In this document: positions 1 through 8,018 of the stretch, piece after piece
How the letters are laid out: each line of letters starts with the position of its first letter
Numbering within the stretch: the stretch's first letter is position 1
NCBI GenBank assembly: GCA_036229005.1
Contig: JAZAMN010000023.1
Location: 1-20,387, forward strand
DNA: 20,387 nt
Source: Myxococcota bacterium
Lineage (GTDB): Bacteria > Myxococcota_A > UBA796 > CAJQPC01
Reading direction: 5' to 3'
Translations under genes and position numbers: made by a program
Notes under the pieces: model-generated
What the model saw: only the letters and a program-made list of their open reading frames with translations
The model's database searches: none
Told to the model about the DNA's origin: nothing

Positions 1-491
1 CAGAGCTTTAGGCCCCGTTTGAGCTCAATCGGACAAGGTTGGGGCAACCCATGAATCTGCAGGGGTGGGCCTACGGATGCCAGATGGTACGGGAAGGTGC
101 GAGAGAGTGGGTGGGGCCGCCCGTTGGGGTAGAAGAAGCCGCTGGGGAGCCAGGGAGCCGCGCTCGAAGTGGAGTTGTCGCAGCGACGCGGTGGGATTGC
201 CGCTGCCGCATGAGCCCGGATGCTCAACCCCGGCGGCAGGTGTAGCGAGGCGTTCAATGGGAGCCGCGTTCGAGTGGGGGCGGACCCGGCAGTTTTCCCC
301 TTCGACTTCGAGGACACCGCTGGTTTGCTATCTGCGGTCCCTGTCGATGACGGCTGCGGGGGCCTGGCTGCACGGGCGCCTGCAGTGCGCAGGAATCGCC
401 AACCACGCGGAACACACCCAGGACAGGTCAATTGCGACGACACCCGGCAGCCCAAGAGGTCGGCCCGATGCACGATGCGAAGGCCCATCGC

Positions 492-565
492 GCACAACGT
501 TCAGGCGGAGACGCCGTCGTCGGAGGCCGGAGGCCGGAGCGATGGCGTTTCCCGCCCCGTTAGGT
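492..565 (-). repeat. attC-like recombination site, copy 1
   Basis: GCACAAC-GTTCAGGCGGAGACGCCGTCGTCGGAGGCCGGAGGCCGGAGCGATGGCGTTTCCCGCCCC-GTTAGGT; imperfect palindrome bounded by AAC (496-498) and GTT (559-561). Confidence 0.88.
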
Positions 566-611
566 GTCGGAGCGCCGACTACGGGCGGGTGTGTCAGGTC
601 GGGCTGTTTGT

Positions 612-1631
612 CTATAGGCTCCTGGGATTTGCGAATGCCAAGATCTTCTTCACACGGGAGACAACTGACTCCGGGAACGTGTCGGAGACATCGATTCCAT
701 CGGCGAAAACTATGTTTCCATTCTCGCCTGAGATGATGGCGGGTTCGGTCAGTGCGTGGGCAGCCATAGCCAACTGCTCGCGCGAACACTCGTCCACTTG
801 GAGGTACCGGTCCTGGCCACTCCCCCATCCACTATCGAAGAGGCCTTCCGAGTGTAGGTGCCAGAGGTTGACACTGACCAAGTCGGGAATTGGGGGCAAG
901 TCGGCAAGCCGAATCGGCCTGCCTGAGAGGACCAAGAGCTGTCGAGTACCTGAAAGTCCGCTCAAAATGCTGAGGTTTGGAGTTGTCGGATTCCTGACTT
1001 CGACAGACTTGGCGCGTACGTCGGCCGTCGACATCGAGTTTGAGGTCCAGATCTTCAGTGTCTCTACTTCCACGTCGGCTAGACCACCTCCGTAGGAAGA
1101 TAGGTGGAGTTCTGGGAGAGAGAACCCGGACAATGGCGCCCCGCGTGGCCGTGCCTGAGAAACGCACAGCGACCGAAGAGGCAGCCGCCCTGCTATGCTT
1201 CGCAGCTGGGAGACCCGTGGCTCGGCCAAGGTCATTTCCTCAATGTGCTTGGCATCGGACAGCCAGGAAAGCTCTCGGGATGACCCGATCAGTACAATTT
1301 TCCCCACGTTGGCGTGGGCAAGGTAGTCCAGTGCACACATTTTGTCGTGGATAGTAAGGCATTTGACTTGTAGCCCGTCAAGCCAGTTGAGATCTGACAG
1401 GCCGGAGCCCTCCGGCACCCAGATGTCAACGCCACCTTCTGCGGAGGGCAGGTCGGTCAGGACAGGCTCGGCATGCTCTTTGCCCCGCGCGGTGGCAGTC
1501 AGTAGGCCTATACCGTTGGGGTCTGATAGTCGGACGGCATTGTGCATGGGCGCTGGAACTCTGATGTTCGAGGAGCATGGAGAGTAGTGTGGTTCTCGGC
1601 CAGCAACCATTGAATTGAGGCGCTCTGACAC
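612..1631 (-). CDS. Cassette protein with degenerate leucine-rich-repeat-like periodicity; start uncertain (GTG 1631, ATG 1610 or later)
   Basis: 339-aa ORF filling the interval between repeats 1 and 2. Recurring LxxL.xLxxLxL-like segments (LSDLNWLDGLQVKCLTI, LSWLSDAKHIEEMTL, LSILSGLSGTRQLLVL, LADLPPIPDLVSVNL). Confidence 0.55.
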   Translation of the reverse strand: MSERLNSMVAGREPHYSPCSSNIRVPAPMHNAVRLSDPNGIGLLTATARGKEHAEPVLTDLPSAEGGVDIWVPEGSGLSDLNWLDGLQVKCLTIHDKMCALDYLAHANVGKIVLIGSSRELSWLSDAKHIEEMTLAEPRVSQLRSIAGRLPLRSLCVSQARPRGAPLSGFSLPELHLSSYGGGLADVEVETLKIWTSNSMSTADVRAKSVEVRNPTTPNLSILSGLSGTRQLLVLSGRPIRLADLPPIPDLVSVNLWHLHSEGLFDSGWGSGQDRYLQVDECSREQLAMAAHALTEPAIISGENGNIVFADGIDVSDTFPESVVSRVKKILAFANPRSL

Positions 1632-1704
1632 CTAACGTTCTAGGCGGAGACGCCGTCGTCGGAGGCCGCAGGCCGGAGCGATGGCGTTTCCCGCCCCGTT
1701 ATGG
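1630..1704 (-). repeat. attC-like recombination site, copy 2
   Basis: ACCTAAC-GTTCTAGGCGGAGACGCCGTCGTCGGAGGCCGCAGGCCGGAGCGATGGCGTTTCCCGCCCC-GTTATGG; AAC 1634-1636, GTT 1698-1700. Confidence 0.88.
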
Positions 1705-1728
1705 GCAGCCGACCCGACCTTGGAAGGA

Positions 1729-1766
1729 TTGTCCAACTTGACCAACAAGTTGAGTGTGGGTAGGGT
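1729..1766 (+). promoter_or_regulatory. Putative sigma70-type promoter with overlapping operator for the TA operon
   Basis: TTGACC (1738-1743), 17 nt spacer, TAGGGT (1761-1766). The palindrome CAACTTG-N5-CAAGTTG (1734-1752) overlaps the -35 box. An AGGAGG RBS precedes the start at 1784. Confidence 0.55.
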
Positions 1767-1783
1767 CTTCCAAGGAGGTCGTG

Positions 1784-2071
1784 ATGACCAAGACTCTTTC
1801 AGCCGCCATTGCCAAGGCTCAGTTCAGCGATTGCCTTCGCGAAGTGGAGCAGGGGGGCGAGGTGTTGATCACGCGCTACGGCCGTCCTGTAGCAGTTCTT
1901 GTATCAATGGAGGAGCTCGACCAACTTCGTCGATTGCGGGCGGCGTCCCCGATGGAGGGTCTTGCAGGACTGCTGGGCCAGGTGCCCGACGGTGACGAGT
2001 ATGCGGAGTCCCTGGATGCGGTGGTTGCCGAGCGCTCGGTCGGTCGTACTGTGGCGCCCGTGGAGGACTGA
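1784..2071 (+). CDS. Phd/YefM family type II antitoxin
   Basis: MTKTLSAAIAKAQFSDCLREVEQGGEVLITRYGRPVAVLVS is a typical Phd/YefM N-terminal motif; AGGAGG RBS upstream; lies directly before a PIN toxin. Confidence 0.9.
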   Translation: MTKTLSAAIAKAQFSDCLREVEQGGEVLITRYGRPVAVLVSMEELDQLRRLRAASPMEGLAGLLGQVPDGDEYAESLDAVVAERSVGRTVAPVED

Positions 2072-2076
2072 GCTCC

Positions 2077-2493
2077 ATGGCCTTCCTGTTGGACACCAAT
2101 GCCATCTCCGAGGTCCTGCGGTCCAGGCCCAATGCCGAGTTCTCCAAGTGGCTGATGGAGCTCCCGCGCGCTGAGCAGTTCACCAGCAGTGTCGTGGCCG
2201 GCGAGTTGCTGTATGGAGCGCTTCGGAGTTCAAAGCCAGACCGATTCGTCCAGCTCTACGAACACCAAGTGTTGCCCAGGCTGACGGTGCTGCCGTTTGA
2301 TCTCGACTGCGCGCGAGTGTATGCCTCGGTTCGGGCTGAGCTCAGCTCCAAGGGCCAGCCCATTGAGGATGCCGACTTGATGATTGCAGCAACCGCGCTC
2401 CATCATCGGCTGACCGTGGTGACTGCCAATGTTCGGCACTTCGGGCGGGTTCCCGGACTCCGGGTTCGGACATTCAAGCCAGGTTCCCAGTAG
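2077..2493 (+). CDS. vapC: VapC family PIN-domain toxin
   Basis: FLLDTNAISE ... GELLYGA ... DADLMIAATALHHRLTVVTANVRHFGRVPGL; conserved PIN acidic residues; 138 aa; 5 nt after the antitoxin. Confidence 0.93.
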   Translation: MAFLLDTNAISEVLRSRPNAEFSKWLMELPRAEQFTSSVVAGELLYGALRSSKPDRFVQLYEHQVLPRLTVLPFDLDCARVYASVRAELSSKGQPIEDADLMIAATALHHRLTVVTANVRHFGRVPGLRVRTFKPGSQ

Positions 2494-2689
2494 ACCGGAG
2501 ACTGGGGTATTGCTATGAGCTTGCTGACCAGATCGAATGCCTGCGCAGGCTGTTCCAGTCGAGCGATCTCAGAAGTACCAAGATTGCCGCGGGTACGTGC
2601 ATTGTCCGCATAGCCGGCCACCCTGAGAAGCCTTGAGTGCCAGGGTGCTCGTGCTTCGTCTACCAGCCGTCGATTTGAGGGTCGGTTGC

Positions 2690-2763
2690 CCATAACGTTT
2701 AGGCGGAGACGCCGTCGTCGGAGGCCGCAGGCCGGAGCGATGGCGTTTCCCGCCCCGTTAGTT
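2690..2763 (-). repeat. attC-like recombination site, copy 3
   Basis: CCATAAC-GTTTAGGCGGAGACGCCGTCGTCGGAGGCCGCAGGCCGGAGCGATGGCGTTTCCCGCCCC-GTTAGTT; AAC 2694-2696, GTT 2757-2759. Confidence 0.88.
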
Positions 2764-2866
2764 GAAGTGGCCCGGCGTCCGGCGCCCACCTGCCTGACGG
2801 CCGGGCCAAAGCCTCTTTCGTGGGAGGACTCATATGCTGCGACGAGAGAGAAGTTGAAGGGGGGGC

Positions 2867-3700
2867 CTACAAGGCCTGACCAATAAGGGTGTAGCCGGCA
2901 CTGTTGTACATGAGGGATGTGATTCTGAACCCGTCGGCGCACATGTCTTGCACCGCTGTTGAGAGCTCGCTGCCAGAGGCCTGAACGACGGCTCCTGCAT
3001 AGCTGGCATCTTGGTCAGCTCGTTGACCTACTAGCGTGTATCCAGCGGAAGTCGCAGTCGCGGATGTGATGACGAAGCCATTCGCGCTCATCGCGTCCAC
3101 AGTGTCCGCGAGATCCGATCCACCGGGCTGCTCGATGGTGGAGTCCAGATCCCCCTCATCACCCTGTCCGAAGAGAGTGTAGCCGGAGGAGTTGAAGACC
3201 AGGCTCTGAACTACCTGACCGTTGCTGGACATGTCAGCAACAGCCGCCGCCAGGTCTGAACCTGCCACTTGGTCTACTGCTGAGGACCCGGTCAAGGCCC
3301 CAGATTGACCGACAAGAGTGTATCCAGCCGTGTTGAACATCACTTCACCGACGACAAGCCCGGAGCTGTCCATTGAGCTCAGGGTCCCAGCCAGTTCGGA
3401 GCCTGCTACCTGCTGAACGTCGTCAGCTGAGATACCCGACCGGGCATCCTGGGCAAGGAGAGTGTATCCAGCATCATTGGCGACGGCCGCGATTACACGC
3501 TTGTCGCTGGAAGTGAATGTCCCGATCTGCGCAGCGATCTCAGCGCCAGAGACCTGGCTGATGGAGCATCCGCCGTCGACCTTCACCCCGGTCCAGGATG
3601 CCAAGTCGGGGGTTTCGTTGTCCTGGTTGTTGTTTCCGCTGCCGTCAAGTCGGTCGCCAACGAAGCAGCCTTGCAAGGCAATGAGCAGTAGGTAGGTCAT
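2867..3700 (-). CDS. Predicted lipoprotein with five ~48-aa tandem repeats
   Basis: Short signal peptide with lipobox-like LQGC; five units of the form QxxGS(E/D)LxxxxxxMxxxGxxxxxxxxNxAGYTLxGQ. Confidence 0.8.
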   Translation of the reverse strand: MTYLLLIALQGCFVGDRLDGSGNNNQDNETPDLASWTGVKVDGGCSISQVSGAEIAAQIGTFTSSDKRVIAAVANDAGYTLLAQDARSGISADDVQQVAGSELAGTLSSMDSSGLVVGEVMFNTAGYTLVGQSGALTGSSAVDQVAGSDLAAAVADMSSNGQVVQSLVFNSSGYTLFGQGDEGDLDSTIEQPGGSDLADTVDAMSANGFVITSATATSAGYTLVGQRADQDASYAGAVVQASGSELSTAVQDMCADGFRITSLMYNSAGYTLIGQAL

Positions 3701-3904
3701 CTGGTACGCCCTTGTTGAGTCATGGAGTCGTGGGGCTTCGTTCGACTAGAGACCACTGCCCGGTTCGGAGGGGTGGACTTGGCCCCCCAAAGCTCTACCG
3801 GACACTCGCTGGTCAGTTGAAGCCCTGAGGCAATAGCTTGTATTGGGAGGTCGATCCAGAGATCTGGACGCCTGACCAGGAGACATGGCGAGCCGGGTCA
3901 TTTC

Positions 3905-3978
3905 AACTAACGTTTAGGCGGAGACGCCGTCGTCGGAGGCCGCAGGCCGGAGCGATGGCGTTTCCCGCCCCGTTCTAC
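3905..3978 (-). repeat. attC-like recombination site, copy 4
   Basis: AACTAAC-GTTTAGGCGGAGACGCCGTCGTCGGAGGCCGCAGGCCGGAGCGATGGCGTTTCCCGCCCC-GTTCTAC; AAC 3909-3911, GTT 3972-3974; core identical to copy 3. Confidence 0.88.
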
Positions 3979-4016
3979 GTCGGCCGCGACCGCAGAGGAT
4001 AGTATCTCCCAAACGA

Positions 4017-5126
4017 GTGGAGTTGCTCTTGGCGAATCTCGGAAACATGGGGGAGAGCTTCTTCAACCACCTGTGCGATGAAGCGGGCCTGACACCGAAT
4101 CCTGTGAGACGGGATGCGACAGGCTGGGATTTCTTGGTCGAGATTCAACGCGGGATGGCGCCTCAGGGGGTGGACCTATGCCCTGAAACCTCGGCGCCGC
4201 TCGTGACCTGCCGGGTCCAGGTCAAGGCCACACATCGGAGTGAGAACCACGTTGATGGAATCTCGCTCGAGAACTGGCGTCGGCTCGCGATCGGCGAGTT
4301 GCCCGCGTTCTTTGTTGTACTCAGATACGAAGGCCTTCGCCCTGCCAGTGCCTACGTGATTCATGTAGGCCCCGAGCAGTGCAGGATCGTCCAGGAGCGA
4401 CTCCGAAAGGCGGCCGCGGAGAAGAATCCGAGCCTCCGTCGGAGGACTTTGCGCCTCAAGTGGGGTGAAGGGGACGCTCTTCCTGAAGTGAGCGGCGCCT
4501 GCTTGAAGGAACGGCTGGTTGGGGATGTTGGGGACCCGTCGACGTACGGCGCGCGGAAGAAGAAGTGGAATCAGGAAGCTGACTCGACCGTCACCCAGAT
4601 GCGGTTCTCGATAGACAGTGACAGTCTCGGAGCATCCGGGGCCGGAGAGTTCTTTCGGGCCATTGAGGAGCTGGCGCTCGGCATTCGCGAGTCTCTTCCG
4701 GTGACAGTCGCTGAGGTTTCATCGACCAGGCACGGGGTCACGCTGGTTCATCCGCAGACACCAGAGGGGGGCTTCGGCGGCGGGGCCAGGCTTTCTCTCT
4801 CGAACGGGCCACCAAAGGTGAATATGGAGGTGGAGTTCTGCAATCCGAGAGGGACGGTTAGGGCCACTTTCGTCTGGGACGCCATCATCCCCGTCGGCGT
4901 GTTCCCGTTCCTCCCCCATGAGCAGGCACGTGTTCGATACCTAATCGAGGGGGTCGAGTGTGTTCACTCCTTGGGAACCGGAAAGTTTGACCTTGTATTT
5001 CTGCCTGGATTCTTCGGCAGCGTGAGACCGGTCGCTGAGTGGTGGGAATGGATGAAGCTCCTGCGGCTGGTCGAAGAGGGCGCAGTGGAGTTCACCGCGC
5101 GCCCGCCTGAAGGGCTGCCACTCTGA
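4017..5126 (+). CDS. DUF4365-like PD-(D/E)XK nuclease domain protein, N-terminal part of a probably interrupted gene (alternative start TTG 4029)
   Basis: LGNMGESFF ... DATGWDFLVE ... RVQVKAT ... PAFFVVL fits the E...D...(Q/E)xK restriction-endonuclease-fold pattern; family assignment from motif recognition only. Confidence 0.65.
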   Translation: MELLLANLGNMGESFFNHLCDEAGLTPNPVRRDATGWDFLVEIQRGMAPQGVDLCPETSAPLVTCRVQVKATHRSENHVDGISLENWRRLAIGELPAFFVVLRYEGLRPASAYVIHVGPEQCRIVQERLRKAAAEKNPSLRRRTLRLKWGEGDALPEVSGACLKERLVGDVGDPSTYGARKKKWNQEADSTVTQMRFSIDSDSLGASGAGEFFRAIEELALGIRESLPVTVAEVSSTRHGVTLVHPQTPEGGFGGGARLSLSNGPPKVNMEVEFCNPRGTVRATFVWDAIIPVGVFPFLPHEQARVRYLIEGVECVHSLGTGKFDLVFLPGFFGSVRPVAEWWEWMKLLRLVEEGAVEFTARPPEGLPL

Positions 5127-5192
5127 GGCCGGTGGGAGGCCGTAGAGTTTGAGGGTGACCTCCGAGGACTCGCTGGCGAGGGGTACATAGCT

Positions 5193-5645
5193 GTGCAGGC
5201 GGCGCGTGATGTTCTTCACGACTTCGAGCTCCCGCTGAACATCGCAGTTGATCTAAGCGATTTGACTCGACAGACTGAACGGCTTCGGCTGGTCCGAGGG
5301 CTTCTTCAGGCCCAGCGCGTGGGATTGAAGATGCAGGTGAGCATCCAGATTCCGAGTGAAGCTGAGACTCCTAGGGAACTCGGGCATGGAGCTGTCGCTG
5401 CGGTTCGCGTAGGAGACCGGGTGCTCTTGATCGGGGCAGCGCTTGGCGGCGAGGTCGACGAGGTGGGGCGTGAAGGTGTTTGGACTCGGGTGGAGTGGGC
5501 GAGACCAGAGGTTGTCGTGGTGTACCGGAAAGTGTGTGACAGCGAGGAATTCCGCCAAGCTATGGTCGAGTGCGCGTACGAGCGCATCGTTGAGCACCTA
5601 GAAGACCTGCCGTACGACTATGTTGATCCAAGGCTGAGCGGCTGA
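5193..5645 (+). CDS. Hypothetical protein; in-frame C-terminal continuation of 4017..5126 beyond a single TGA
   Basis: Same frame as 4017 (offset 1176 nt); 5127-5192 is stop-free (GRWEAVEFEGDLRGLAGEGYIA); stop at 5643-5645 lies inside the cassette terminal repeat. Confidence 0.55.
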   Translation: MQAARDVLHDFELPLNIAVDLSDLTRQTERLRLVRGLLQAQRVGLKMQVSIQIPSEAETPRELGHGAVAAVRVGDRVLLIGAALGGEVDEVGREGVWTRVEWARPEVVVVYRKVCDSEEFRQAMVECAYERIVEHLEDLPYDYVDPRLSG

Positions 5646-5690
5646 CGTAGAACGTCCGCCTAGACGCCCCTCAGGGTTTTGTGCGCTGTC
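5638..5690 (-). other. Candidate attI-like primary integration site (crossover near AAC 5651-5653)
   Basis: The terminal repeat of the last cassette ends in AAC at 5651-5653 but is followed by unique sequence (GTCCGCCTAGACGCCCC) instead of the attC core; ~150 bp upstream of the recombinase start. Confidence 0.65.
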
Positions 5691-5806
5691 GAATGTTTGA
5701 CACCCCTCACCGGGGGGAGGCCGGGGGGATGTCGATGAGATGGGGGTTCTGGGGTTGGCCTGGGTCTTGCTACGCGAGGAGGTGCGTTGCGAAAGGAGGG
5801 TGTGCT

Positions 5807-6643
5807 GTGGAGAAGGTGCTGTCTGAAGGGCTGTTTGAGCGGTATCGGCAGGAATTGCGTTTACGCGGGTATATGCCGCGGACGGTGGACACCTATGTGA
5901 GCTGCCTGAGGAGCTATGTGCGGTGGTTGGGGGTGGCGGTGATTCCCAGGGAGGTGGCGGAGGACACGCCTCGGAACTTCCTGATGGGCCTGGTGGAGAC
6001 GGGGGCGTCCCGCTCGCTGTTGGATCAGATGATCTCGGCGCTGAACTTTCTGTACGTGGAGCTGTACGGATGGGAAAAGGACGCGCTGGACATGCCCCGG
6101 CCGAAACGGAGGCAGACGCTGCCAGTGGTCCCGACCCGCGATGAGGTGCTGAGGCTGGCAGAGGCCTGCCAGAACCGAAAGCACCGGGCGGCTGTGCTGC
6201 TGACCTACGCCTGCGGGTTGCGGGTGTCCGAGCTGGTGGGGCTCCGAGTGGGGGACGTGGAGCCCGATGAGCTGCTGGTGCGCGTGCGCTGCGGAAAGGG
6301 GGGAAAGGACAGGGTCACGATCCTGGCCGAGAGCCTGGTCCCCGAGGTGGAGTGGCTGTCGGCCGGGAAGACGCAGGTGGACTTCCTGATCCACTCAGCC
6401 AGAGGAGGGCAGTGGTCGACCCGCTCGATGCAGGCGGTGATGGCCAGAGCTCGCATCGAAGCAGGGCTGCACAAGCGGGTGACGCCCCACTCATTGCGCC
6501 ACGCGTTCGCCACGCACCTGCTCGAGCAAGGGACGGACCTGCGCGTGATCCAGGTGATGCTCGGTCACAACCACATCGCCACGACGACCCGGTACACGCA
6601 CGTGGTCAGCCCGGCGAAGGTGAGGGTGCGGTCGCCGCTCTGA
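5807..6643 (+). CDS. Tyrosine recombinase/integrase, IntI-like but lacking the IntI-specific insertion
   Basis: GTG start after AAAGGAGG; N-terminal SAM-like domain (LRLRGYMPRTVDTY); catalytic R (GLRVSE), K (GKGGKDR), HxxR (HSLRH), H (LGH) and Y (TRYTH) present; C-terminal VRSPL; 278 aa. Confidence 0.93.
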   Translation: MEKVLSEGLFERYRQELRLRGYMPRTVDTYVSCLRSYVRWLGVAVIPREVAEDTPRNFLMGLVETGASRSLLDQMISALNFLYVELYGWEKDALDMPRPKRRQTLPVVPTRDEVLRLAEACQNRKHRAAVLLTYACGLRVSELVGLRVGDVEPDELLVRVRCGKGGKDRVTILAESLVPEVEWLSAGKTQVDFLIHSARGGQWSTRSMQAVMARARIEAGLHKRVTPHSLRHAFATHLLEQGTDLRVIQVMLGHNHIATTTRYTHVVSPAKVRVRSPL

Positions 6644-6654
6644 GGCGAGTGTGC

Positions 6655-6730
6655 TTAGGCGCAGGGATTGCGGGATGCGGGTTTAGGGCGCGGGGATTGC
6701 GGGATGCGTGGGAAGTGCGCATTGCGGGAT
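6655..6730. repeat. Short direct repeats downstream of the integrase
   Basis: GGGATTGCGGGATGCG at 6664-6679 and 6693-6708, each preceded by TTAG(G)GCGC(A/G); partial ATTGCGGGAT at 6721-6730. Confidence 0.7.
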
Positions 6731-6809
6731 CGGTTTTTTTCCACCGATAGACGCAGTTGCGGGTTTGAGGTGGGTTCACGCAGTCTCAAGATGGTCCGAT
6801 GAAGGGGAC

Positions 6810-8018
6810 ATGCGCACGTTGACCTTCGTCTTTGCTGTCCTGCTCGCCCAAGAGGGCGGGTGGTCGGGTTCCATGGGTTCGCCAGGGTCGGAAGCTCCAC
6901 CCCCCGACGAGGAGACCGGTCAGGACACCTCTGAAGGAGAGGGCTCGGGCGAGGTCTCTGAGGGGGCTGATCCGGTGCACAGGGCAACGGATGAGGCGGG
7001 AACGGACGAGGTCCCCGAGGTGGAGCCACCACGCAGTTCCTCGCTGGTGGTTGGGGGTGTTGAGGATGGGGTGGGCCCAGAGGATGAGGCGGTGGGCCCG
7101 GATCTTGGGGAGGGGGAAAGCGCCGCTCCTCCTCTGGATCTGTCGCAAGCATCGACGGTTCCAGATGTGACACCGGCGCAGCTTGAGTGGCTGCGACCTC
7201 GGCTGGGGAAGCTGCCGCCGAACCCGCGGGCGCACACGGACTACACGGCGTACACGCTGGACTTCGGTGAGGTGCAGCTCGGCCTGACGAACACGCGCGT
7301 GGGGCTGCTGCCGCGGACGCAGGTGGGGGCGAACCTGCCGCTGACGCTGGCGGGGGTCTACAACGGGAACGTGAAGGTGAACGCGCTCCGGGCCGGTCCG
7401 GTGGACGTGGCGGTGTCGGGGGCGGGGTACCGCTACCTGCAGTCGGAGTTCGAGGCGCAGTACTGGTCGGTGGGGCCGACGGTGAGCTTGGCGCTGGGGC
7501 CGCACTTTGGGGTGCACCTGGGCGGGCAGTATTGGCGCGTGGGGATGGAGGGGGCGTTCGCGGCGGCGGAGGTGCACCCGGTGCTGGGACTGGCTGACGA
7601 GGTGGGGCTGTTCCCGCAGGTGGCCTACCAAGGCCAGGCAGCGAGCGGCCGGCTGGCGCTGGAGTGGCGGCTGAACCGCCGGGACTCGTTCGTGCTGGAC
7701 GCGGGGACGATGTTCTGGATGGAGGAGCTGCCGGGGAGCAAGAGCCAGGTGCCGCCGATGCTGGGGGCGTACGCGGGGAGCTCGGGGTTCTCGCCGCAGG
7801 ACAGCTACCGGGTGTCGCTGGCGTACCAGATGGACCTCAAGCGGCTGTCGCTGCGGGCAGGGGTGGGGACCTCGCAGCCGTCGGGGGCGTGGCTGCTGAA
7901 CACCTTCGAGGCGAGCTACCGATTCGGGGGCAAGACGAAGGCGCAGGAGCGGCGACAGCGCAGGACCTGGCGGCAGAACCGGCGGCACGCGCGCAAGGGA
8001 GAGCCGGGGGCGCCCTGA
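6810..8018 (+). CDS. Secreted hypothetical protein, possibly outer-membrane beta-barrel
   Basis: ATG 6810 after GAAGGGGA; hydrophobic N-terminus MRTLTFVFAVLLAQ; acidic low-complexity linker; then alternating beta-strand-like segments ending ...FEASYRFGG; strong GC3 codon bias from ~7200. Confidence 0.65.
   Translation: MRTLTFVFAVLLAQEGGWSGSMGSPGSEAPPPDEETGQDTSEGEGSGEVSEGADPVHRATDEAGTDEVPEVEPPRSSSLVVGGVEDGVGPEDEAVGPDLGEGESAAPPLDLSQASTVPDVTPAQLEWLRPRLGKLPPNPRAHTDYTAYTLDFGEVQLGLTNTRVGLLPRTQVGANLPLTLAGVYNGNVKVNALRAGPVDVAVSGAGYRYLQSEFEAQYWSVGPTVSLALGPHFGVHLGGQYWRVGMEGAFAAAEVHPVLGLADEVGLFPQVAYQGQAASGRLALEWRLNRRDSFVLDAGTMFWMEELPGSKSQVPPMLGAYAGSSGFSPQDSYRVSLAYQMDLKRLSLRAGVGTSQPSGAWLLNTFEASYRFGGKTKAQERRQRRTWRQNRRHARKGEPGAP

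Follow-up and report, generated by a model that had tools for sequence, protein, structure and literature searches.

A short IntI-related tyrosine recombinase beside an integron-like cassette array in a Myxococcota contig

The locus, its cassettes and its recombinase

The window, that is the whole stretch of DNA analysed (20,387 nt), is an entire contig from a draft genome of 6.4 Mb that is 94% complete. A gene on the + strand at 5807..6643 encodes a short IntI-related tyrosine recombinase of 278 aa, transcribed away from a cassette array that continues to the contig end at position 1 and is therefore truncated. Start 5807 was picked by homologue lengths; an in-frame GTG lies upstream at 5681. 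A preliminary description had placed recombinase, junction and array at 481..6643. All three elements were found there, with the array extending further, to position 1. The array comprises four whole cassettes and a cut one; a junction resembling attI and four AAC…GTT sites of almost the same sequence mark their borders. The array exhibits a G+C content of 0.58–0.61 in comparison to 0.71 in the flank.

The cassettes are given without strand assignment. Cassette 1 (3972..5653, 1,682 nt) holds a single + strand frame (4017–5645) interrupted by an in-frame TGA at 5124; the resemblance of its N-terminal part to DUF4365 (PD-(D/E)xK-type nuclease) is to be taken as a lead only. Cassette 2 (2757..3911, 1,155 nt) carries an ORF on the − strand (2867–3700, 277 aa) whose product is predicted to fold like DUF7477 repeat proteins and is possibly a lipoprotein; used as query, this protein gave no match in 153 other genomes of the order. 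Family matches in cassette 3 (1698..2696, 999 nt) revealed a Phd/YefM antitoxin (1784–2071) and a PIN/VapC toxin (2077–2493), both on the + strand and inverted with respect to the array direction. For the orphan ORF of cassette 4 (559..1636, 1,078 nt; ORF 612–1631 on the − strand, 311 aa if started at ATG 1547) family searches yielded no match, and a homologue search returned the query alone. Cassette 5 (1..498) is cut by the contig end. PADLOC reported nothing significant for the cassette cargo.

Both domains proposed for checking, PF13495 and PF00589 (E 2e-39), were matched by the recombinase. Its catalytic residues R139, K164, H228, R231, H254 and Y263 are all present and invariant across 70 homologues, and a C-terminal SPL motif is shared with IntI. 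Between the KDR and HSLRH motifs lie 58 residues, as counted earlier, whereas the same interval measures 100 residues in 12 of 13 canonical IntI of the same order (the 13th could not be parsed) and 58–66 residues in XerC, XerD and XerA. The absence of the IntI-specific insertion, likewise claimed before, is borne out by a gap of 42 residues (I2 region) in the alignment, by a home-made insertion profile that matched neither the recombinase nor 120 homologues and detected 13/13 IntI at 68–127 bits, and by the structural model, in which helices 175–185 and 205–219 are connected through two short strands with no additional helix.

TIGR02249 gave 188 bits, below its cut-off of 265, with the match falling into two pieces (profile positions 3–174 and 240–312), and the Xer profiles also stayed below their cut-offs (XerC 166/335, XerD 161/330, XerA 185/220 bits). 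The best PDB sequence match is 2a3v (VchIntIA), which also has the highest TM-score (0.69) among the fold matches listed; by fold E-value XerA comes first. In the tyrosine-recombinase tree suggested earlier, the recombinase groups with IntI in a single clade that excludes Xer (100/100). Within this IntI-plus-short group, IntI is a clade without the present enzyme (100/100), which belongs to a separate clade (100/100). The short recombinases come together on one side in 28% of bootstraps (AU p = 0.325), and the tree does not order the short groups relative to IntI. Separate Xer-type genes occur in the source genome.

Cassette sites and the attI-like junction

Core comparison and folding located attC-like cores, again without strand assignment, at 3909..3974, 2694..2759, 1634..1700 and 496..561, closing cassettes 1, 2, 3 and 4, respectively. 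These cores of 66–67 nt differ by 1–3 nt. Every cassette has its own inverted ends of 16–20 nt, which differ invariably by A/G at position 11; in all four whole cassettes a G·T pair results on just one of the strands. The start arm of cassette 5 likewise has A at this position. Cognate arms match at 10/10 positions, followed by G/A, in 4/4 cassettes, and cognate ends agree at 15–18 of 20 nt compared with 5–11 of 20 for non-cognate ends. Since a stringent search of the full genome for arm pairs carrying the wobble returned eight matches, four of them the array cassettes, their ends are beyond chance. One further match is a solo cassette elsewhere in the genome, adjoining a fifth, truncated core.

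The sites had been described as hairpins. While the array of AAC…GTT sites is confirmed, the cores alone fold modestly (z −1.0 to −1.8). Junctions of modelled circles are calculated to fold at −35.7 to −38.7 kcal/mol, the bottom strand more strongly than the top strand in 4/4 cases, by 1.0–2.5; this strand bias is small. The same sites within the array fold at −20 to −23 kcal/mol with no bottom-strand advantage. In these folding models a strong hairpin forms only when one cassette's own two ends meet. Its unpaired spacer measures 5/2 nt, and the extra unpaired inner-stem base is C. A finder for canonical attC geometry recovers the sites of IntI arrays but places both ends correctly in none of the four cores. 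Rfam searches matched no family to the sites, in the window or in nine related loci, and a suspected link to the Flavo-1 motif was not confirmed.

The attI-like site (5638..5680, − strand) contains AAC at 5651–5653, and its predicted crossover G|TT on the − strand (5652/5653) lies 153 nt before the recombinase start. Evidence for variable DNA at this point was obtained from metagenome data. In run X5 a contig of 14,411 nt matches 5651–8000 from its position 1058 onward with 24 differences (99% identity), and its 1,057 other letters, presumably another cassette, are joined exactly at 5651. A contig of run X2 begins at 5651, and loose ends gather at site borders in all four runs. The junction at 5651–5653, previously set at 5653, is thus a real variable point in related populations. 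That cassette 1 lacked cover in runs X2, X5 and X8 was not counted as absence, nor were the summed core depths (~40–50x the platform in X2) counted as copy number. Joints between sites in these data were rejected as signs of excision, having short sides and arising from the repeated core. For a cassette promoter Pc, 5600–5900 gave no sigma-70-type match; the host may use other promoter types. A palindrome TGTC-N8-GACA at 5687 was considered as an SOS box; it does not occur upstream of recA or lexA, and no claim is made for it.

Alternatively, the same enzyme might act on duplex sites with two rounds of strand exchange, in the manner of Xer or Cre, the hairpins being incidental. Such a mode would suit a recombinase without I2 whose predicted fold is, by E-value, as close to XerA as to IntI, and cores that are near-identical in the array and fold weakly alone. 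Yet the cassette ends vary freely while staying complementary over ~15 nt, which is unneeded for duplex recognition, and cores range among relatives from 66 to ~200 nt with the stem kept and the sequence not. Duplex tyrosine recombination needs a matching overlap, and attI and core have only the GTT triplet beside the crossover in common, which argues against this mode. We regard it as unlikely, though the likeliest of the alternatives.

Related loci and canonical IntI

The earlier concern that close homologues might stand without arrays was followed up. Like arrays adjoin seven of the 11 order-level homologues with more than 1 kb of upstream sequence; no cassette was found upstream of the remaining four (L044, L049, L050, L054) or of the class-level homologues L207 and L208. 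Contigs end within 1.5 kb upstream of 17/25 homologues, compared with three downstream. A search of genome contigs for related loci returned three distant proteins only, and phage records two weak matches.

An initial inverted-repeat detector with loose settings fired in 25/150 random 5-kb windows, a high background, so that chain, flank-blind and strict tests were relied on instead. The wobble-marked chain was recovered in only 10 of 80 metagenome loci, many of whose contigs are short. Among candidates whose outer arm matched (36 cassettes, 18 loci), a chain walk blind to the wobble found A/G at position 11 in 32/36, compared with 4/44 of the others; positions 12–14 were complementary in 35/36, with all four bases occurring. 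In a flank-blind test of four genomes of genus g41, A stood at position 11 in 13/13 start arms and G in 13/13 end arms. The core sequence of the window was not found in 29/30 relatives and only weakly in one, and cores are therefore lineage-specific. For several AT-rich sites, folding of the core is as good or better on the top strand. Cassettes from different genomes that share identical arms proved to have unrelated bodies, and no cassette common to two species was seen.

A canonical IntI elsewhere, which could have built the array, could serve it in trans or could since have been lost, would make the short recombinase a bystander. In principle, the draft state of the genome (94% complete), the presence of IntI in 28/154 genomes of the order and the commonness of integrase-less arrays leave room for this. 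No canonical IntI was found in the source genome, and it occurs in 0/21 family members and in 3/25 genomes that have the short recombinase. Four genomes (G090, G091, G094, G096) with 35, 19, 25 and 6 site matches, respectively, yielded no IntI. Where canonical IntI does occur, arrays lie downstream and none upstream, and those of the same order differ in site geometry and wobble (A/G at position 11 in 0/9, outer arm in 0/9, spacers of 5 and 6 nt). The attI-like junction, in turn, precedes the short recombinase by 83–274 nt in 11 loci, and the invariance of the catalytic residues does not fit a bystander either. We therefore consider an array built or served by IntI quite improbable.

Least probable of all is a transposon-like nature of the cassettes, as small units mobilised by a different enzyme through their inverted ends, with the recombinase as a resolvase-type passenger: insertion-less IntI relatives are reported in IS91 and IS3 elements and one cassette stands alone in the genome, but the inverted ends differ between cassettes, the units adjoin precisely at AAC/GTT, are separated by a conserved core, all face the same way and are anchored at the recombinase, and no transposase was seen in the window's ORF list, read by eye, with family scans covering the array ORFs.

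Interpretation and comparison with known systems

We interpret the locus as an integron-like cassette platform in which a recombinase lacking I2 likely inserts and excises cassettes itself, with folded single strands as its predicted substrate (probability about 0.7). The preliminary description had proposed such a non-canonical cassette-capture system run by a shorter IntI-related enzyme, and the computational attempts made to refute it failed. According to the mechanism we propose, the + (bottom) strand of a site would fold so that an asymmetric unpaired spacer (5 nt after AAC, 2 nt before GTT) separates an inner stem from an outer arm of ~15 bp. This arm would be fully paired only when a cassette's own ends meet, as in an excised circle. 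In the paired arm, position 11 would be G-T for the bottom strand and A-C for the top strand; the wobble would single out the strand to be cut and assume some of the function of I2 and the extrahelical bases. At G|TT, the enzyme would then carry out a single-strand exchange that joins the folded site to duplex attI, replication would resolve the junction as in classical integrons, and new cassettes would enter beside the recombinase, pushing older ones outward.

A cassette array with predicted hairpin sites, an insertion-less enzyme beside it and different DNA joined at 5651 in a closely related population together make it likely that this enzyme runs a second, overlooked kind of integron. Standard integron detection may miss the platform, a prediction supported for the integrase and by site geometry. 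More tentatively, and with somewhat more doubt than confidence, it may represent a second widespread class with an I2-less enzyme and strand marking by wobble, an intermediate predating I2, with IntI arising inside the group by gaining the insertion.

Integrons are defined and searched by the I2 insertion. In the literature I2 is held necessary for cassette capture, which counts against our preferred explanation, and both I2 and the recombination of single strands are presented as properties of IntI only (PMC7790495). Escudero et al. posed a chicken-and-egg problem, with I2 selected before attC or the reverse, and pointed to missing intermediates (PMC4792948; PMC7790495). Our literature search returned no description of such an I2-less enzyme heading cassette arrays. 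An enzyme of this kind at the head of live arrays with their own site type would make the origin of I2 directly testable with short oligonucleotides. It would also imply a mobile-cassette pool, and possibly a new structure-specific recombinase, uncounted by current integron surveys.

Sedentary chromosomal integrons (VchIntIA, PDB 2a3v) share the divergent integrase, an attI next to its 5' end, the G|TT triplet, the array of hairpin sites between unrelated genes, toxin–antitoxin and nuclease-like cargo and a lower G+C than the flank. Unlike the present platform, they possess the 42-residue insertion. Canonical attC has an unpaired spacer of 5–6 nt on each arm and an extrahelical G in L'' (PMC5027507), in contrast to 5/2 nt and an inner-stem C instead of the usual G here; their outer arm of 7–10 bp compares with ~15 bp and a fixed G-T at position 11. 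XerC/XerD and archaeal XerA are similar in the length of the catalytic region and differ in their place in the tree (100/100) and in the cassette array found here. As sequences, insertion-less IntI relatives are known from the 'integron-like' simple tyrosine recombinases of Smyshlyaev et al. (PMC8138268, bioRxiv 10.1101/542381), to which our protein likely belongs; as far as the available text of that source goes, the subgroup is tied to IS91/IS3 elements and not to attI and cassette arrays. Cury et al. (bioRxiv 10.1101/030866) concluded that recombinases without intI_Cterm near attC are not IntI, which likewise counts against our preferred explanation. The CALIN described there resemble the present array as attC-like arrays with no recognisable intI, whereas the present sites differ in geometry and are accompanied by a conserved recombinase that is intact and by a junction resembling attI.

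An IntI-related recombinase lacking the IntI insertion

The cassette array and its recombinase are a real feature of this draft genome (6.4 Mb, about 70% G+C, 94% complete), of which the window makes up contig C23 in full, and the runs containing the window stretch are marine metagenomes. The names under which homologues are recorded (Myxococcota, Deltaproteobacteria) point to a probable Myxococcota host. The tyrosine recombinase (278 aa, 5807–6643, + strand; PF13495 and PF00589) scores 188 bits with the integron-integrase model TIGR02249 (cut-off 265), to which it aligns in two parts (positions 3–174 and 240–312), and remains under the cut-offs of the XerA, XerC and XerD models. The KDR–HSLRH interval is as short as the preliminary description claimed, with 58 residues compared to 100 in 12 of 13 canonical IntI of the same order (one not parsed); 56–59 residues were found in 118 of 120 listed short enzymes, i.e. 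this recombinase and its insertion-less homologues (two not parsed). In the alignment with IntI the gap consists of blocks of ~31 and ~10 residues flanking a WxFP-like strand. An insertion profile built from seven IntI and searched against 182 proteins recovers 13/13 IntI at 68–127 bits and leaves the window recombinase unmatched, in agreement with the claimed absence of the insertion (I2). The AlphaFold model (mean pLDDT 88.7) exhibits no extra helix in this interval. All six catalytic residues are invariant in an alignment of 70 sequences, and a C-terminal SPL motif is common to the recombinase and IntI and absent from two aligned Xer-type proteins. Among the Foldseek matches listed, XerA comes first by E-value and VchIntIA (2a3v) is top by TM-score. 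Judged by the insertion that defines IntI, the protein is outside the IntI family.

A tree built from 28 proteins unites the short enzymes and IntI in one clade, set apart from Xer-type proteins; IntI is monophyletic and the window recombinase falls in a separate clade (100/100 each), in line with the proposed relationship to IntI but outside the IntI clade itself. For the branching of the four subgroups, short-enzyme monophyly appears in 28% of bootstraps (AU p = 0.325), and I2 "never gained" and I2 "lost" are therefore not separated; it is simpler to assume that IntI gained I2 once. The chicken-and-egg paradox of integron evolution is raised in PMC4792948.

Ahead of the recombinase, a palindrome TGTC-N8-GACA is located at 5687–5702, which we take to resemble a CRP-family (MrpC) site; similar palindromes were seen in the promoters of 5 of 27 homologues and at 20 genomic positions, frequently in tandem. 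A GGACA-N5-TGGTC-like motif, picked after data inspection, is not present upstream of the window's own recombinase. It was found upstream of 9 of 28 short recombinases (L020, L023, L027, L036, L047–L050, L053), downstream of 0/28, and on contig C7 of this genome ~100 nt before a RecA match (one recA of the genome). Regulation by DNA damage is possible. At locus L061, a short recombinase that has an array upstream is followed directly by two tRNA genes (6965–7238).

Cassettes, sites and the variable junction

The proposed array of AAC...GTT sites is present as four cores of 66–67 nt between cassettes with their own inverted ends; cognate ends agree at 15–18 of 20 positions, compared to 5–11 for non-cognate pairings. 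Each of the four cassettes shows ten perfect pairs, then G versus A at position 11 and a further 5–7 pairs; this wobble mark reads G-T on the + strand and A-C on the − strand. In silico, the circle junctions have folding energies of −35.7 to −38.7 kcal/mol, the + strand being favoured by 1.0–2.5 in 4/4, whereas the sites as they stand in the array reach only −20 to −23 without + strand bias. Isolated cores fold weakly (z −1.0 to −1.8), with 5 nt unpaired after AAC, 2 nt before GTT and one extra C.

The fourth end pair terminates at AAC 5651–5653, where platform sequence, i.e. the recombinase side of 5651, replaces the core. The polarity is therefore classical: divergent recombinase, attI and cassettes read on the − strand, with a predicted crossover G|TT at 5653/5652. 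An 8-mer of the core's inner stem recurs inverted in the attI-like site (5651–5668), beside the crossover. In metagenome run X5 a 14,411-nt contig matches 5651–8000 (24 differences) starting only at contig position 1058, X2 has a platform contig that begins at 5651, and a contig of cassette 1 in X1 stops at 5653. Platforms that are nearly the same are thus joined to differing DNA precisely here; we infer that the other 1,057 letters in X5 are another cassette. In all four runs compared (4 of 11 listed), loose ends concentrate at the borders of sites. Many variant contigs over cassette 5 (100–480) and the Phd-VapC cassette (1870–2670) in X2 hint that the array is larger and includes cassette families present in several copies, for which summed depth is no copy number.

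Cassette G+C is 58–61% versus 71% in the flank. The newest cassette holds a DUF4365-like split frame (4017–5645; lead only) of 542 codons with an in-frame TGA at 5124. Since clusters resembling its product measure 526–529 aa, this cassette may represent a pseudogene or contain an error of assembly. Further cargo comprises a DUF7477-like protein (by predicted fold), the Phd-VapC pair and an orphan protein. A strict genome-wide scan gave eight wobble-marked arm pairs, four of them the window cassettes. One solo cassette (854 nt, C57:89933–90786) beside a fifth core truncated on its outer side (locus C57:89876–90786; L012, L216) sits within a tandem-repeat island and is likely an off-target insertion. 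The pairs at C22:58590–59363, C26:29220–30941 and C31:134934–136081 may be chance or solo cassettes.

Arrays and integrases among relatives

Canonical intI, whose presence would have offered another enzyme for the array, was found neither in this draft genome nor in 21 other drafts of the family. Across the drafts surveyed (13 candidates scored per genome), 28 of the order's 154 genomes have it, compared to 3 of the 25 with a match to the short enzyme. An IntI acting in trans, or since lost, is accordingly improbable as the enzyme serving these sites. Contig ends lie within 1.5 kb upstream of 17/25 close homologue genes and downstream of 3/25, as expected where assembly is interrupted by repeat arrays. 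The predicted association of homologues with similar arrays holds in part: where more than 1 kb of upstream sequence exists, 7 of 11 have a wobble-marked cassette ending 135–274 nt before the gene, and none was found upstream of the other four (L044, L049, L050, L054) or of class-level L207 and L208. Matches to one such site number 35 in genome G090, 19 in G091, 25 in G094, 6 in G096 and none in G099, and G002 has 8 for a site of its own; the survey found no IntI in any of these genomes. Among 80 distant metagenome loci, most of them AT-rich, 10 also carry wobble-marked chains (upstream in 3, downstream and co-oriented in 7).

In a chain walk blind to position 11, with duplicate loci and own-genome fragments excluded beforehand, 80 candidates were obtained, and A/G occurred there in 32 of 36 with a matched outer arm versus 4 of 44 others. 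With sites set by inner motifs alone, A was found in 13/13 start arms and G in 13/13 end arms, in nine contigs of four genomes, which are related and so do not count as independent. In same-order arrays of canonical IntI, with spacers of 5 and 6 nt, A/G at position 11 and the outer arm are each present in 0/9 usable cassettes (six further pairs excluded for a gap >1.5 kb or poor core match). Spacer asymmetry is not fixed among distant loci, where the offset is 1, 3 or 4 nt, which makes the wobble the more constant mark. Identical cassette arms around unrelated cargo in different species (L233, L234, L242) suggest reuse of arms in cassette formation.

Proposed reaction and comparison with known systems

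By every sequence test run, the system would work like an integron. We consider it probable (roughly 70%) that the short enzyme runs an integron-like reaction: the bottom strand of the site would fold as its substrate, and a single strand exchange at G|TT would be resolved by replication. The fixed G-T at position 11 would act as a strand mark, and a second exchange may be blocked, without I2, by the short asymmetric spacer. The arms vary freely yet stay complementary, which argues that pairing is needed; recombination of the sites as duplexes is rather unlikely. Transposon-like units, for their part, are very improbable. The non-canonical cassette-capture system of the preliminary description is supported in its architecture and missing insertion; catalysis by this enzyme is predicted.

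In the full-text literature, with most subscription journals outside coverage, we found no description of arrays run by insertion-less enzymes. PMC7790495 calls I2 necessary and intermediates lacking. PMC8138268 and bioRxiv 10.1101/542381 describe an "integron-like" subgroup in which the insertion is not conserved, with relatives in IS91/IS3. In bioRxiv 10.1101/030866, 21 recombinases without intI_Cterm near attC were judged not IntI, four of them intermediate between IntI and Xer; in that work (Cury), Figure S1 may include members of the short-enzyme family. Related work is bioRxiv 10.1101/2022.02.06.479319 and PMC9024848. Canonical IntI of the order (L186–L190, L199) have co-oriented downstream arrays, the reverse of the same-order short-enzyme layout; Treponema integrons are co-oriented according to PMC3607928. 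In contrast to canonical attC, with 5–6 nt unpaired in each arm and an extra base that is usually G (PMC5027507), the window cores combine 5/2 nt with an extra C.
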